In this document: in pieces, positions 3,946 through 17,713 of the stretch | Numbering within the stretch: position 1 is the first letter of the stretch | Layout: each line of letters starts with the position of its first letter | Sequence record: OP172796.1 | Reading direction: 5' to 3' (one strand) | DNA length: 64,000 nt | DNA from: Escherichia phage EF202P1 | The notes under the pieces: generated by a model | What the model saw: only the letters and a program-made list of their open reading frames with translations | The model's database searches: none | Told to the model about the DNA's origin: nothing | Translations under genes and position numbers: made by a program

Positions 3946-11964
<8,019 letters not shown>

Positions 11965-11966
11965 TA

Positions 11967-13154
11967 ATGGCAGTAGGTGAAATTCAAATTAGTGCCTTGC
12001 CTCAAGCAGCCTTACCAATTGACCTTAGTGATATCTTCCATCTTAAGCAGGGTATTGAGGATAAGAGGTGTACTCTTGAGCAATTACTTGCTCCACACTC
12101 AAGCCTAAAAAATAACCCTCATGGTGTTACTAAAACACAAATTGGTTTAGATAATGTTATTAATGCTCTTCAGTTAGTCGCTGCAAATAACTTATCAGAT
12201 ATTGTTAATGTAGCTGAGGCAAGAGCAAATCTACAGATTATGTCTTCAGAAGAGGTTAATAACCTTGTTCAGCAACATATCAAGGACAAGAGTAACCCAC
12301 ACAATACAACTAAGGCACAGGTTGGTTTAAGTAATGTTCAGAACTGGACAACATCTAACCTGTATAATGAAGATGCAGATAAGTATGCTACAGCAAGAGC
12401 AGTAAATAATTTGTACAAGGCTGTTCAGGCTTCTTATCCAGTAGGTACTATCCATCTTTCTATGAACTCTGCAAACCCTTCTACATACTTAATTTGTGGA
12501 GGTACTTGGGAGTTGGTTTCAAAAGGTAGGGCATTGGTTGGCTATGACTCTGATACAAGGCCAGCAGGTTCTGTATTTGGTGCTTCGACTGTCACTTTGT
12601 CAGTTAATAACATGCCTCAACACTCACACTCTGTATCTCTTAGTGGTGGTGGTCACACTCATAATGCAACTGTTTCAATTTCAGCTTTTGACTATGGAAC
12701 AAAGACTACCAACTCTTTTGACTATGGAACAAAGACTACTAACACAACTGGTAACCACAATCACGTTGGTAGTGGGTCAACAAGTGCTGCTGGTGCTCAC
12801 AACCACAGATTGACCTATGAAGCGGGTGGTGGCCTATCGGAGAGACCTGCAATGGTTTGGTCTACAAGAAATGACCAATCATGGTACTCAGCAGATGCTG
12901 TCTGTGAAGTCGCTGGTTCGCACACCCACTCTTTTAGCGTTACCACTAACACAACTGGTAACCATAATCATACGGTGGGTATTGGTGCTCATAGCCATAC
13001 AGTTGGTATTGGTTCACACACACACAATGGTACTGTGGCAGTTTCTTCTTCTGAGCATACACATAGTGGAAACACTAATAGTGTTGGTGGTGGACAAGCT
13101 TTCAACATTGAGCAGCCATCATTCGTGCTGTATGTATGGCAGAGAACAGCTTAA
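11967..13154 (+). CDS. tail fibre protein (short), HxH-rich receptor-binding tip
   Basis: Two NPHxxTKxQxGLxNV fibre repeats; C-terminus with many GxHxH motifs (HTHNATV, GNHNH, GAHSHTVGIGSHTHNG) ending ...WQRTA. Confidence 0.75.
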   Translation: MAVGEIQISALPQAALPIDLSDIFHLKQGIEDKRCTLEQLLAPHSSLKNNPHGVTKTQIGLDNVINALQLVAANNLSDIVNVAEARANLQIMSSEEVNNLVQQHIKDKSNPHNTTKAQVGLSNVQNWTTSNLYNEDADKYATARAVNNLYKAVQASYPVGTIHLSMNSANPSTYLICGGTWELVSKGRALVGYDSDTRPAGSVFGASTVTLSVNNMPQHSHSVSLSGGGHTHNATVSISAFDYGTKTTNSFDYGTKTTNTTGNHNHVGSGSTSAAGAHNHRLTYEAGGGLSERPAMVWSTRNDQSWYSADAVCEVAGSHTHSFSVTTNTTGNHNHTVGIGAHSHTVGIGSHTHNGTVAVSSSEHTHSGNTNSVGGGQAFNIEQPSFVLYVWQRTA

Positions 13155-13164
13155 TTTCTTTACA

Positions 13165-13186
13165 GGGGCTTTATAGCCCCTTTTAA
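13165..13186 (+). terminator. intrinsic terminator between tail-fibre genes
   Basis: GGGGCT-TTAT-AGCCCC then TTTT. Confidence 0.6.
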
Positions 13187-13200
13187 GAGGAAAATTTATA

Positions 13201-15585
13201 ATGGCAGATTACAAATTGAGTGAATTAAACTCAATCGATACAATCCGTTCAGATGACCTTCTTCATGTCAGAGTTAAAAAGAGACCTGAAATGCTGGGTG
13301 ATGAAGACCGTCGAATGACCTATCAAGATTTCTTAGCATCTTTTAAGCTTGAGAGATTTGTTCAGATTATTGGTAGTACCATGACGGGTGATTTAGGTAT
13401 TGTTAAGTTACTTTATGGTGGTAAGACAGTATTTGACCCTACAGGCTCTTCTGAGATTAATATTGGGGATGTTTTAAAGACTTTTAAAATTAACGCAAAC
13501 GGTCTTAAGCTAACTATTGCAGATGCTTCAAGGTCGGCAACTGTTTACCATACCCTGAATAAGCCAAGTCCTAATGAGCTTGGGATGAGAACTAATGAAG
13601 AGAATGATGCAAGATACTCAAGATTAGCTGCAAATAACATCTTTACCTTCCAACAGGTTATTCAAGCAAATGGCGAAGCTATTAGACTAAAAAATTCTTC
13701 TGAGAACTCACCGTTGTATATTAGAGGTCAGGACAGCACTGGTGCTAATAGGTGGTATGTAGGTAATGGTTCAGGGAATGATGATGTTATTATCCACAAC
13801 TACAAGACAGGTTGTGAAGTGAATCTGTCTAGTGTTGCTGCTATCAGTAAAACACTTAGAATCACTGGTCAAGTCCAACCTTCTGACTTCTCTAACTTAG
13901 ATGCTAGATACTTCACACAGACAGTTGCTAATCAGAGATTTGCACAGTTAGCTGCTAATAACAATTTCACTGGCACTAACACGTTTAGCAGAAACCTACT
14001 TATTATTAGTGACAGTGCTGCTTTAAGGTTGAAAAATACTGTAGCAAATGCTGCACTATACGTTAAAGCCGAAGCTAATGATGGTTCTGGTAAGTGGTAT
14101 GTAGGAAATGGTGATAATACACCTGCTGTATTCATCAGCAACTATGTGTATGGTTCTTATCTTAGACTTGACAATGGTCATGTCGCAGTAAACAAGGACT
14201 TCAGAATCACTGGTCAAGTTCAACCTTCAGATTGGGCTAACATCGACTCTAGATACATCCCAGCAGCAACTTTGAGTAACCTACCTAAACTTAATGTTGC
14301 TAACACATTTGTGAATGTGCAAACTATTGTATCAAATAATGAAGGCGTAGTATTAAGAAACTTAACACAGGGACAGCCACAATATATCCGTGGTGTTGAT
14401 ACCCAGAATGTATCTAGGTGGTGGGTAGGTGTGGGTGGCACAAATTCTACTGATGTAGCATTAAACAACAGCTACTCTGGGACTCAAATTACTCTTATGT
14501 CCTCAGCGATTAAGGCTAATAAGAATCTAACCATTACTGGTCAAGTACAACCTTCTGATTGGTCTAACTTAGATGCTAGATATTTTGTTAAAACTCAGTT
14601 ATTAAATCAATCCTTAATGACTGTCTCTGTAGATAACCTTGAAAACCCTTCAGCATTTAATCTTGGATATTCAGGTTTTGTCAGAAACAACAGTGTGACT
14701 AGTGGTCTGAAAGAGTTGGCAATTCATGTTGCTCACTCTAGTAAGTCTGCTGCACATGCAAGGGGTATCTCTTTTGTATACGGTTCAAACGGTTTGGCAA
14801 CATTCACCTATGCCTATGACAAAGACGGCAGATATGCTGGGGAAGCACAGCTTTACACAACTGATTTTAAACCAACCCCTTCAGATATTGGTGCATACAC
14901 TAAAGCTGAAACTGACCAGAAGATTGCACAGGCAGTAAGTGACTCTACAGACCTTAACAAAATCTATCCAGTTGGTATTGTAACGTGGTTTAACAGTAAT
15001 GTTGACCCTAATACAGCACTTCCTGGTCTAACTTGGACGTACCTGAACAATGGTGTTGGTAGAACTATCAGAATCGCAGCAGCAAACGGTTCAGATGTTG
15101 CTACAACTGGTGGTTCAGACTCTGTAACTTTAGCTGTTGGTAACTTACCATCACACACTCACAGTTTCTCTGCTACCACTTCATCTTTTGATTATGGTAC
15201 GAAGGGCACTAATAGTACTGGTGGTCATACTCACTCTGTAAGTGGTACAACAAGTGCTGCTGGTAACCACGCTCACCACTTAGGTTTGTTATTAGTTAAT
15301 GGTGGCGATGCTTTGTACGGTTATACAACAGTTGGTAACAATAAGACAAGGACTCTTGACTGGCTTGACAGAACTGATAACAAGTTCCCTAACACTAACA
15401 CAACTGGTAACCATACACACACATGGTCTGGTACTACAAGCAACACTGGTGCTCACACCCACTCTGTAGGTATCGGTGCTCACACTCATACAGTTAGTGG
15501 TAACACTGGTGGTACAGGTTCTGGTTCAGCATTTAGTGTTACTAACCAGTTCTACAAGTTAATGGCTTGGGTAAGAACTGCTTAA
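13201..15585 (+). CDS. tail fibre protein (long) with three internal ~110-aa repeats and HxH-rich tip
   Basis: Three repeats ending [10 protein letters not shown](W/F)(S/A)N(L/I)D(A/S)RY; C-terminus paralogous to 11967..13154 (SFDYGTKxTN, TNTTGNHx[17 protein letters not shown], ...WVRTA). Confidence 0.8.
13600..14590 (+). repeat. three tandem ~330-345-nt intragenic repeats in long tail-fibre gene
   Basis: ATCACTGGTCAAGT(C/T)CAACCTTC at about 13861, 14206, 14534. Confidence 0.6.
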
Positions 15586-15664: not shown

Positions 15665-15862
15665 ATGCCTACAATCCTAGCAATTCTTCTAAAAAATCTA
15701 GGTAGCTTCTTCTGGAAACTCATTTTATCCCTTCTAAGTGAATACATGATTGAGAAAGTGTTCTTTAGGCTTGCAAGATACCTTGCGAGTAAAACAGACA
15801 CACCTATTGATGATGAGTTCGTAGATAACTTAGAAAAAGCTTTTAAGGGGGAGAATAAATGA
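15665..15862 (+). CDS. small membrane protein (holin-like candidate)
   Basis: 65 aa, hydrophobic N-terminus, charged C-terminus; follows promoter+hairpin after tail fibre. Confidence 0.3.
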   Translation: MPTILAILLKNLGSFFWKLILSLLSEYMIEKVFFRLARYLASKTDTPIDDEFVDNLEKAFKGENK

Positions 15863-16230
15863 AGTGGCTAGAGGAAGCTTTTAAAAATAATATTGGTGCA
15901 ATTGTAGTTGGTATTTTTAGTGTTATTGGGATGTATACCACCATGCAAGTTTCGGATGGTAAACAAGAAGTGTCTATCACAACAAAGTTACAGCAGTTGG
16001 ATAATTATTCCAAAAGTAATTATTCAGCTATCCGTGATTTACAGTCTGATATGAGGTTGCTTCAGCTAGGGATGGAGAACCAGAAAGTCCAGTTAGAGAA
16101 TGTTAAGGGTGAGAACGCAAAACTTACTAAGACTCTTGATAAATTCTCTGATAGTGTGAACAATCTGGCTCAATCAGTATCAGCCCTCCAAGCTATTACT
16201 GAAAAGAACACAAAGAATACTGAAAAGTAA
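15859..16230 (+). CDS. membrane-anchored coiled-coil protein
   Basis: N-terminal TM segment (IGAIVVGIFSVIGMYTT) plus coiled-coil rest; coupled to upstream ORF. Confidence 0.3.
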   Translation: MKWLEEAFKNNIGAIVVGIFSVIGMYTTMQVSDGKQEVSITTKLQQLDNYSKSNYSAIRDLQSDMRLLQLGMENQKVQLENVKGENAKLTKTLDKFSDSVNNLAQSVSALQAITEKNTKNTEK

Positions 16231-16237
16231 AGTTTAA

Positions 16238-16265
16238 GGCTCCTTTTTACGGGAGCCTTTTTTGT
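16238..16265 (+). terminator. intrinsic terminator at end of + strand structural block
   Basis: GGCTCC-loop-GGAGCC then TTTTTTGTTTT; convergent with thyA. Confidence 0.7.
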
Positions 16266-16266
16266 T

Positions 16267-17166
16267 TTATTTACCTACTGACAAAGGTGCTTCAATCTTT
16301 CCTGCATGTTGGTAATTGTTAATACCACCAATAAAGTCACTTGCAGTGAGATGTTTTAAGTCACTTAAAGTGTTAAGTGGGATACCAATCTCAAAAGTTG
16401 GTGCATGGAACTCTTCATTGTTCATCAGTTCATAAACCTGCTTCATATGGTTCTGATAAATCTGGGTATCTCCAAAAACACCTATCAAGTACCGTGGAGT
16501 GTATCCAGCCATCTTACAAAGAACTTCCAGAATAAAGCCATAAGATGCAATGTTAAAGGGAAGTCCTAAAAAGGTGTCTACAGAACGCTGATACCATTGT
16601 AAGTCAACTTCACCCTCGTTAGTGATATAAATCTGAAACAGAACATGACAAGGTGCTAAAGCCATTGAGTTAGCTGCAATATCTGCTGCATTCCAAGCAT
16701 TAACAAGCATGTAACGGTCTGTGATATCACCCTTCATCTTCGTTACTAAGGTATCTAACTGGTCTACAACACAACCATTATGACCTTCAAAGTTCCTCCA
16801 CTGAACCCCATAAATCCTTCCACCTGCATCTTCTAACCAATCTTGTTCAGAAGAATAATTAGAGCTTAACCAGCGTTTGAAATCATCTGACCAGATTGTC
16901 CAACGTTCTCCGTCATTTTCACCCCAAGTACGGTAACGGAGTTCACCCAGTTTATTCTCACCGTTCAGGAACCATAAAGCTTCCCCAATAACTTGCCGTG
17001 TAAACACCTGTTTAGATGTTAAAAGTGGGAAACCAGTTCTCATATCAAAACGAAATTGTGGTGGAGCAAATGCAGAGATAACAGCTCCAGTTCGTGTAGT
17101 ACGCAGTTCACCGACTGATAAAACATGGTTCAGGATATTTTTGTAACTTGTATCTGCTTGTGACAT
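16267..17166 (-). CDS. thyA: thymidylate synthase (ThyA type)
   Basis: Active-site region ALAPCHVLFQ and overall ThyA-like sequence. Confidence 0.9.
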   Translation of the reverse strand: MSQADTSYKNILNHVLSVGELRTTRTGAVISAFAPPQFRFDMRTGFPLLTSKQVFTRQVIGEALWFLNGENKLGELRYRTWGENDGERWTIWSDDFKRWLSSNYSSEQDWLEDAGGRIYGVQWRNFEGHNGCVVDQLDTLVTKMKGDITDRYMLVNAWNAADIAANSMALAPCHVLFQIYITNEGEVDLQWYQRSVDTFLGLPFNIASYGFILEVLCKMAGYTPRYLIGVFGDTQIYQNHMKQVYELMNNEEFHAPTFEIGIPLNTLSDLKHLTASDFIGGINNYQHAGKIEAPLSVGK

Positions 17167-17167
17167 A

Positions 17168-17713
17168 TCAAAAGTGTCCTTTTACTTGTGGAACATAAAT
17201 TTCAAAAGTTGCTTTACCATCCTCTGATGGTTTTGACTGTACCTTTGTAAATACACGGTTATCATACAGCTTCTCAAAGAAGTTTTCAAAAGGTAAATGC
17301 ACAGTGGCCTCTTCAGTAACTTTATGGAAAACAGTATGGAACACCACACCAGCATACGGTAAAGCATTGACAAGGATACCTGCACCACCAATTACAAAGA
17401 CATCTTCATCAATAGAGCTATCAAGATACTTCAAAAATGCTCCAAATGAATCTTTACTGGCTTTAGCATACATTACATCATCTTTGCCAAAGTCTATGCC
17501 TAAGTATGGTACAGAATTTGTTAAGATGAGGTTTGCACGTTCTGGTAAAGGCTTACTCCCCAGAGTCTTGAAAGTCTCATTCCCCATCACTACTAAGTTA
17601 TTTTTAGTGAGTCTCTTAAACTCTTGCATGTCCTGTTTATGTCGAGGCCACGGCATACCAGTTGGAGTACCAAACTCACCATTTTCACCACTTGCAAAGA
17701 TTAATTTAATCAT
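17168..17713 (-). CDS. frd: dihydrofolate reductase
   Basis: N-terminal DHFR signature (IFA...GMPWPRH...VVMGNETFKTLG); adjacent to thyA as in T4 frd-td. Confidence 0.85.
   Translation of the reverse strand: MIKLIFASGENGEFGTPTGMPWPRHKQDMQEFKRLTKNNLVVMGNETFKTLGSKPLPERANLILTNSVPYLGIDFGKDDVMYAKASKDSFGAFLKYLDSSIDEDVFVIGGAGILVNALPYAGVVFHTVFHKVTEEATVHLPFENFFEKLYDNRVFTKVQSKPSEDGKATFEIYVPQVKGHF

Follow-up and report, generated by a model that had tools for sequence, protein, structure and literature searches.

The short and long tail fibres encoded by a 64,000-nucleotide stretch of Escherichia phage EF202P1 (OP172796.1; hereafter the window) very probably each carry a collar-needle-head tip of the T4 gp37 type. 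The window matched Escherichia phage vB_EcoM-LTH02 (Felixounavirus) at 96.7% DNA identity over 4.1 kb, and the 247 matching records were mostly phages of E. coli, Salmonella and Shigella, with Felixounavirus nearest. The source phage is a Felixounavirus (Ounavirinae), a Felix O1-like myovirus of E. coli. The fibre region is laid out as follows:

11662..11964, + strand: 100-aa ORF, probable long-fibre platform (Bas63 gp25, T4 gp9-like), placed by synteny
11967..13154, + strand: short tail fibre gene, 395 aa, Bas63 gp26 orthologue (phrog_2097, Gp10_C, 2XGF)
13201..15585, + strand: long tail fibre gene, 794 aa, Bas63 gp27 orthologue (phrog_4277, gp37_trimer, Phage_fiber, 2XGF)
13848..14585, + strand: long fibre shaft, three repeat units ending ITGQVQPSD(F/W)xN(L/I)DxRY (direct repeats; gp37_trimer)

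The two fibre genes encode adjacent baseplate fibres and are orthologues of Bas63 gp26 and gp27. Gene products of 489, 287, 100, 395 and 794 aa follow one another in the order wedge 2, wedge 1, platform, short fibre and long fibre; the two ORFs 5' of the 100-aa ORF (489 aa and about 285 aa) correspond to Bas63 wedge 2 (gp23) and wedge 1 (gp24), and the short/long pair stands in the same layout in 9 related records. The 100-aa ORF matched a PHROG family of unknown function (phrog_4141, E 9e-62), and synteny points to a long-fibre platform. The short fibre matched phrog_2097 (tail fiber, E 2e-137) and Pfam Gp10_C (E 1.3e-18), and its LTH02 counterpart is annotated as 'tail fiber'. The long fibre matched phrog_4277 (tail fiber) over its full length (1244 bits), with three gp37_trimer domains (E 1e-69) and Phage_fiber at aa 757-769; its direct repeats D1, at 13848, 14193 and 14520, were 73-82% identical, and aa 156-224 gave a weak T7 gp17-like match to 4A0T/4A0U. 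The N-terminal 140-200 residues of the fibres, their baseplate-binding parts, kept at least 0.9 identity among orthologues.

An earlier note, made from the DNA letters, had claimed that both fibres share a similar His-rich C-terminal module, and every motif that it quoted was found in the sequences. Results of the protein-level alignment that it called for showed 36% identity over about 233 residues (BLASTP E 5e-22). The short fibre carries GAHSHTVGIGSHTHNGT and closes in WQRTA, and the long fibre closes in WVRTA. The short fibre had 9 HxH motifs and the long fibre had 6, against means of 1.4 (max 6) and 0.5 (max 4), respectively, in 2000 residue shuffles, and the His share was 8-9% in the tips versus 1-3% in the N-terminal parts. 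The needle-head cores of the two fibres were 46% identical in protein, and their heads were not alignable. The tips were divided into the following parts:

12414..12620, + strand: short fibre collar domain, first part, aa 150-218 (Gp10_C; gp37/gp10 collar alignment)
12621..12806, + strand: short fibre descending needle strand, aa 219-280, HxH at 219, 230, 264 and 278
12807..12914, + strand: short fibre head insert, aa 281-316, putative receptor-contacting tip (hypervariable; aligns with the T4 head)
12915..13070, + strand: short fibre ascending needle strand, aa 317-368, HxH at 319, 333, 342, 351 and 364
13071..13154, + strand: short fibre C-terminal strand returning to the collar (...EQPSFVLYVWQRTA) and stop codon (aligns with the T4 gp37 C-terminus)
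14956..15153, + strand: long fibre collar domain, first part, aa 586-651
15154..15279, + strand: long fibre descending needle strand, aa 652-693, HxH at 652, 676 and 690, extra His at 693
15280..15405, + strand: long fibre head insert, aa 694-735, putative receptor-contacting tip (hypervariable)
15406..15498, + strand: long fibre ascending needle strand, aa 736-766, HxH at 738, 752 and 761
15499..15585, + strand: long fibre C-terminal strand returning to the collar, and stop codon (conservation 0.91-0.96; pLDDT 91)

Both tips were homologous to the T4 gp37 tip (2XGF). Using phmmer against the PDB, short fibre aa 146-366 aligned with residues 18-227 of the 2XGF chain (E 7e-26) and long fibre aa 647-773 with residues 94-218 (E 2e-21), and gp10 collars were matched at about 1e-5. 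In a three-way alignment with T4 gp37 the mean column identity was 58%, and both tips shared with 2XGF the order of collar, descending HxH strand, variable head, ascending HxH strand and ...R(T/L)A strand. The terminal ...VWQRTA (short) and ...AWVRTA (long) aligned with ...IVRLA of T4; the T4 counterpart of the short-fibre C-terminal strand (pLDDT 89, conservation 0.91) reads ...NYIVRLA in the alignment. The seven T4 HxH motifs were in register with 7 of the 9 short-fibre motifs and with all six long-fibre motifs. Compared with T4, the short fibre has one added HxH unit in the descending half (H230) and one in the ascending half (H364); its descending strand also contains a duplicated FDYGTKTTN unit (30-nt tandem duplication in the DNA, 12685-12713 and 12715-12743, copies 97% identical). 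The long fibre has one unit fewer per half: the unit absent from its descending half is the non-HxH DLGTKTTSS of T4, and T4's last ascending motif has no counterpart. In each fibre the length changes of the two hairpin halves match, as a doubled-back needle requires. Gp10_C (PF21939) was found in the short fibre at aa 154-261 with 68.7 bits against a gathering threshold of 27; the long-fibre collar, at 22.3 bits, fell below the same cut-off but was alignable with the short-fibre and gp37 collars. Thus, at the sequence level, both fibres show colinear homology to gp37, GxHxH arrays on both halves, a head between the arrays and a returning strand. The earlier assignment of both tips to the T4 gp37-type HxH needle agrees with the 2XGF match and with the published cryo-EM and modelling of Bas63 gp26/gp27.

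By this homology, each fibre is expected to be a homotrimer in which a gp10/gp12-like collar would lead into a thin beta-needle running down to a small distal head and up again, before the ...W(Q/V)RTA strand rejoins the collar. The doubling back of the chain is thus predicted for the tips of the window, and the three-dimensional form has been reported for the Bas63 orthologues. GxHxH motifs from three chains would place six histidines around one axial metal ion (Fe2+ in T4), with up to 9 such sites predicted in the short fibre and 6 in the long fibre, compared with 7 in T4. Such axial His-metal sites along the needle would make the HxH arrays a rigid shaft. AF2 monomer models of the tips, built with alignments of 44 and 107 sequences, had mean pLDDT values of 61.5 and 65.3; the collar and last strand were the confident parts (pLDDT 82-91; first part of the short-fibre collar, 82-89), and the needle remained at 45-65 (low confidence), since a monomer model would not be expected to reproduce an intertwined trimer. 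Fold searches with these models gave weak matches to the gp10, gp12 and gp37 families and barely found 2XGF. Homologues of T4 gp38 and of gp57A, a short protein, were not found by tblastn in the 64-kb window, which covers about 64 of about 88 kb (chance-level E 0.18 and 5), so folding may differ from that in T4; dependence on gp38/gp57A is an accessory trait and does not define the fold.

Variability among orthologues was concentrated in the heads. Identity to the window sequence was about 0.9 or higher in the collars and terminal strands (about 0.69-0.96 in the first part of the short-fibre collar) and fell to 0.21-0.31 in the short-fibre head and 0.26-0.35 in the long-fibre head. The earlier note had regarded the HxH tips as likely receptor-binding. 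A gp37-type tip is borne out, but the HxH arrays themselves would, by analogy with T4, be structural shaft, and receptor contact is probably made through the head of about 40 residues between them. This reading follows from T4, in which residues 929-953 of a gp37 tip with seven Fe sites are functional, receptor-critical determinants (PMC6957217), and from the head being the hypervariable part here. Felixounaviruses depend on LPS (PMC8594841; bioRxiv 2026.04.02.716166), which would make LPS a candidate ligand of these fibres.

The two heads are unrelated in sequence and so probably serve different ligands or different adsorption steps. Dual receptor specificity, which the earlier note had suggested, is a reasonable inference from this difference, and a sequential role of the two fibres is equally possible. 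In the sequential case the short fibre would be the counterpart of T4 gp12: the long fibre would make a first, reversible contact and the short fibre would then bind the LPS core irreversibly, as successive steps on one host. We consider this quite possible, if short of probable. In its favour, the Bas63 short fibre is mounted on wedge 2 and the Bas63 long fibre on a platform resembling gp9, much as T4 arranges gp12 and its long fibre, and the short-fibre collar is Gp10_C-like. The distribution of heads points the same way: the short-fibre head type turned up in 31 phage records, each time in a short-fibre gene, and every one of these records that was classified or inspected was Felixounavirus-like; the long-fibre head type occurred in 30 records of Felixounavirus size (about 71-89 kb) and in gp37 of 5 T4-like phages, long-fibre heads being traded with T-even long fibres. 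However, the Bas63 virion holds both fibres folded upwards along its sheath, their tips are of the gp37 and not the gp12 type, and the two fibres of UAB_Phi87 share one head, which fits redundancy better than distinct steps.

The gp37-type reading of the long-fibre tip is also borne out at the DNA level, where the long fibre contains a segment in common with T-even phages:

15187..15495, + strand: needle-plus-head cassette common to Tequatrovirus gp37 (DNA identity)

This segment was identical to gp37 of Shigella phage SHBML-50-1 at 267 of 309 nt (86.4%, no gaps), compared with 64.7% DNA identity to T4 g37, and its flanks aligned with SHBML-50-1 gp37 at 33-54%, that is, as unrelated sequence. 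An 86% identical segment within unrelated flanks supports cassette exchange between phage families, and REP9 (93% DNA identity to T4) is a further case. The coding DNA of the conserved motifs FDYGTK and GIGAHxH brackets the variable head and may mark the breakpoints of horizontal exchange. In the Felix O1-like phage UAB_Phi87, exact matches of 105 and 32 nt link the two fibre genes across the head, and their needle-head cores are 85% identical in protein. The record of Salmonella phage vB_Si_35FD holds just one fibre gene, a chimera whose 5' part is short-fibre and whose 3' part is long-fibre; this may be a real fusion or a collapse in assembly. We tentatively propose that the FDYGTK-to-GIGAHxH needle-head segment (~300 nt) may be a portable host-range cassette, moving between T-even gp37 and Felixounavirus long fibres and, in some lineages, between the short and long fibres of one genome (the same head in UAB_Phi87, the fused fibre in vB_Si_35FD), and folding without a gp38-type chaperone. 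If this holds, designed transfer of the head between unrelated myovirus chassis could be feasible. In the 1990s, Tetart and Krisch reportedly put forward recombination at His boxes for T-even gp37.

The earlier suggestion of a tip-exchange cassette therefore stands for exchange with T-even gp37 and fails for recent exchange between the window's own two fibres. That the paralogous tips form an active exchange system, in which recombination in HxH-coding DNA swaps or homogenises heads, appears very unlikely. Such events do happen elsewhere, in UAB_Phi87 and vB_Si_35FD, but here the cores are 46% identical with unalignable heads, the tip DNA reached 72-76% identity over stretches of only 50-80 nt (with 96% in one stretch of 26 nt), and exact matches between the fibres ran to at most 23 nt. 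On these values we rejected recent short/long exchange in this genome. In related genomes, moreover, the short-fibre head type was never found at the long-fibre position, nor the reverse. That the His-rich repeats are low-complexity sequence resembling gp37 by composition only, with no metal-binding needle, can hardly be maintained: AF2 monomers without a confident needle and the near absence of 2XGF from the fold searches would fit it, but the 2XGF alignment (E 1e-21 to 1e-26) takes in non-repetitive parts (the collar, a stretch of 16 residues and the terminal strand), the long-fibre segment is 86% DNA-identical to a real T-even gp37, and the cryo-EM density and models of the orthologues agree with a needle, so that the homology data appear to have effectively refuted it already.

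The short-fibre gene is also overlapped by two ORFs in one alternative frame:

12496..12813 and 12817..13176, + strand: two alternative-frame ORFs, spurious

The earlier note had dismissed both as spurious, and rightly so. All 18 substitutions relative to LTH02 across the two ORFs fell at codon position 3 of the fibre frame (18/18), the alternative frame was closed by 7-10 stops in three diverged orthologues and by 3 in the nearer REP9, and neither ORF matched a PHROG family. Real overlapping genes in this frame were therefore rejected.

Fibres set which bacteria Felix O1-like phages attack, and these phages are used in the typing, biocontrol and therapy of Salmonella and E. coli. The present analysis is of practical value in locating the heads that probably determine specificity (12807..12914 and 15280..15405) and in giving DNA evidence that the long-fibre needle-head block is interchangeable with that of T4-like phages, which suggests natural junctions for host-range engineering. 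The architecture itself has already been published; the data newly suggest the head as the likely contact and a cassette common to the long fibre and T4-like phages.

Gp37-type tips on both fibres are already known from cryo-EM of the sister phage Bas63 (Escherichia phage JohannRWettstein), whose short and long fibres were described in 2025 with a collar, an HxH needle and a head like 2XGF, and with variable tips (PMC12609058). Bas63 gp26/gp27 and gp52/gp53 of Shigella phage Sf14, related at genus or subfamily level, stand in the same gene order as in the window, and in these relatives too variability across the genus lies in the tips (PMC12609058; PMC11821841). The Sf14 study reports that each fibre is made of one protein and that homologues of gp50/gp51, the fibre chaperones of phage Mu, are absent (PMC11821841). 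Compared by its published description, Bas63 has 7 HxH in its short fibre against 9 in the window (the short fibres of C600M2 and warpig have 7), HHxH at 692/693/695 of its long fibre against HxHH at 690/692/693, and heads that are allelic variants of those in the window. The long fibre and T4 gp37 (2XGF; domains D10-D11) share one identical run of 21 residues, but the window's fibres have 9 or 6 HxH units against 7 in gp37, with different heads, and they are single proteins attached to the baseplate, whereas the gp37 tip belongs to the distal half of a four-protein fibre. Compared with the collars of T4 gp10/gp11/gp12 (Gp10_C, PF21939), the collar in the window is split by a long needle-head hairpin, a feature of gp37 that gp10 lacks. 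The head type of the long fibre recurs in gp37 of the Tequatrovirus phages SHBML-50-1, AV122, BYEP01, sutha and N2. The SHBML-50-1 cassette, head included, is about 93% identical in protein (86.4% in DNA), whereas each lineage has its own collar and C-terminal strand, which do not align as DNA. SHBML-50-1 also has one FDYGTK unit and one GIGAHTH unit more.

The two tail-fibre genes of Escherichia phage EF202P1, a short (STF) and a long (LTF) one, follow baseplate genes in this arrangement:

9333..10802: Baseplate_J protein, upstream of both fibre ORFs
10799..11662: wedge protein, upstream of both fibre ORFs
11662..11964: 100-aa ORF directly before the fibre ORFs
11967..13154, + strand: STF ORF, 395 aa
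13201..15585, + strand: LTF ORF, 794 aa

The order and lengths of these ORFs (489, about 285, 100, 395 and 794 aa) correspond to gp23 to gp27 of the Felixounavirus relative Bas63, which are wedge 2, wedge 1, long-fibre platform, STF and LTF. The 4.1-kb fibre stretch matched 247 phage records, predominantly from Escherichia, Salmonella and Shigella phages. The nearest were Felixounavirus, and vB_EcoM-LTH02, in which the STF and LTF counterparts are both annotated as tail fibres, shared 96.7% DNA identity with the stretch.

An earlier note had proposed that both fibres end in a common His-rich tip of the T4 gp37 type. Every motif that it quoted was found in the STF and LTF translations, and both proteins matched 2XGF, the T4 gp37 tip as solved by crystallography (E 7e-26 for STF, 2e-21 for LTF). 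STF further matched gp10 collars; Pfam Gp10_C was seen in both fibres, over threshold in STF only, and LTF additionally gave three gp37_trimer stretches and an HxH 'Phage_fiber' repeat. The two tips also proved significantly similar to each other, with about 233 alignable residues at 36% identity (E 5e-22). HxH motifs numbered nine in STF (H219, 230, 264, 278, 319, 333, 342, 351, 364) and six in LTF (H652, 676, 690, 738, 752, 761; plus H693), against residue-shuffle expectations of 1.4 and 0.5, respectively.

In a three-way alignment, STF, LTF and T4 gp37 (residues 785-1026) were colinear end to end. After the collar (YP(V/I)G...) and a first HxH where it exits, the chain passes through one or more FDYGTK units and a pair of HxH motifs to an insert of ~40 residues that are not conserved, beyond which come three to five HxH motifs including an invariant VGIGAHxHTV; the last strand closes with W(Q/V)RTA in STF and LTF versus VRLA in T4. 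The T4 gp37 collar comprises residues 811-881 and 1010-1026, seven Fe ions lie along the needle axis, and LPS and OmpC binding requires distal-tip residues 929-953 (PMC6957217). Mapped onto T4 gp37 in this way, the HxH arrays are assigned to the structural shaft, and receptor contact probably falls to the head inserts (STF aa 281-316, LTF aa 694-735). Each half of the hairpin is longer by one HxH unit in STF than in T4 gp37, and shorter by one unit in LTF; a doubled-back needle requires matched indels, and these length changes fit. Conservation among nine related phages was at least 0.9 in collars and terminal strands but fell to 0.21-0.35 in the heads. AF2 monomer models of both tips gave pLDDT 82-91 for the collar and last strand, whereas the needle was poorly modelled (45-65). 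These results indicate that the earlier interpretation was essentially right.

The architecture is already known, having been published for the Bas63 orthologues. By cryo-EM (Sci Adv 2025), STF gp26 and LTF gp27 each bear a 2XGF-like collar, HxH needle and head in which the chain doubles back, with seven di-histidine motifs in STF and six plus one extra His in LTF; fibre tips are the variable part genus-wide (PMC12609058). Two fibres and a gp37-like tip were noted in Sf14 (PMC11821841), and felixounaviruses depend on LPS (PMC8594841; bioRxiv 2026.04.02.716166).

At the DNA level the STF and LTF tips are old paralogues, to judge from 72-76% identity over stretches of 50-80 nt and a longest exact match of 23 nt. 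A 30-nt tandem duplication at 12685-12743 encodes FDYGTKTTN twice. The two-unit arrangement is old, occurring also in orthologues and, in the form [18 protein letters not shown], in T4, yet the copies here are 97% identical, which suggests local homogenisation. The alternative-frame ORFs 12496..12813 and 12817..13176 were confirmed as spurious by-products of codon composition: all 18 of the differences from LTH02 in this stretch fall at the third codon position of the fibre frame, three diverged orthologues carry 7-10 stops in the alternative frame, and neither ORF matched a PHROG family.

The shafts carry repeats of their own. In LTF, three units of ~330-345 nt (13848-14585), each closing with ITGQVQPSD(F/W)xN(L/I)DxRY, coincide with the three gp37_trimer stretches. 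Between conserved linkers, orthologues diverge in this shaft (0.35-0.5) no less than in the tip, as was remarked for Bas63 too (PMC12609058). The STF shaft holds NPH(G/N)xTKxQ(I/V)GLxNV twice (12111-12338, aa 49-124), with no match to a Pfam family at E <= 0.1; a 60-aa extra insertion in the orthologue of Hafnia phage Zyzzx bears a third copy.

The earlier note had also raised the idea of a tip-exchange cassette. By tblastn, the LTF head occurred in gp37 of five T4-like phages as well as in 30 records of Felixounavirus size, about 71-89 kb. Window positions 15187..15495 were identical to gene 37 of Shigella phage SHBML-50-1 at 267 of 309 nt without gaps (64.7% to T4), whereas the flanking DNA for collar and terminal strand is unrelated. 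The STF head type was confined to short-fibre genes of 31 phage records, Felixounavirus-like wherever classified or inspected. Escherichia phage REP9 (OQ174508, L004:5950-6430), a felixounavirus, has an LTF needle-head with 93% DNA identity to T4 gene 37 (253/272), carrying the T4 head YIEAWNGTG.GG.KMSSYA.SYR.GG within Felixounavirus collar DNA, so REP9 may share the OmpC/LPS specificity of T4. In the Felix O1-like phage UAB_Phi87 (NC_027360), two stretches spanning the head, 105 and 32 nt long, are identical in STF (L009:3450-4020) and LTF (L009:5850-6419) and lie between unrelated flanks, a pattern that indicates recent gene conversion. The STF and LTF needle-head cores of UAB_Phi87 are 85% identical as proteins; eight other phages give 31-56%. 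The value for EF202P1 is 46%, and recent exchange between its own two fibres was not seen. Salmonella phage vB_Si_35FD (MZ327261, L011:2854-4056) has a single fibre gene (400 aa), 90% identical to Phi87 STF in its 5' part and 93% to Phi87 LTF in its 3' part. It joins a short-fibre N-terminus and collar to an LTF-type C-terminus (...[14 protein letters not shown]), with a 32-aa internal duplication in the needle/head; the entire LTF shaft is missing and the small post-fibre ORFs come directly after. The paper describing this phage remarks only on a count of seven tail proteins, not eight. The gene may be a natural STF/LTF recombinant formed via the paralogous tips; alternatively, the assembly may have collapsed here. 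These four comparisons bear out the cassette idea for the family and also for the LTF of EF202P1, where the exchange is with T-even phages; recent STF/LTF exchange within this genome is not seen.

Immediately 3' of the LTF gene lie ORFs of 65 aa (15665..15862) and 123 aa (15859..16230), each membrane-type with an N-terminal hydrophobic segment and belonging to families without known function (phrog_402, phrog_4038); some records call the second 'holin', and it faintly resembled an Rz-like spanin (E 0.0097). At 16236-16259 a strong stem-loop of 9 bp, five of them G-C, together with a T-run separates the + strand late fibre operon from the convergent - strand thymidylate synthase/dihydrofolate reductase genes (16267..17713). 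It probably terminates transcription in both directions, and GC skew switches sign there. ARAGORN found no tRNA genes in the whole window (1-64000).

In T4, gene 37 is followed by gp38 and holin t, and the two small ORFs occupy the same position. T4 gp37 needs gp38 and gp57A (PMC6957217). No homologue of either was detectable by tblastn in the 64-kb window. The needle-head could be a portable, chaperone-independent cassette, able to move across phage families as well as from one fibre to the other, a reading that we hold tentatively, as possible rather than probable. Mosaic tail fibres are an old concept, and so is recombination at the conserved His-box motifs of T-even gp37.
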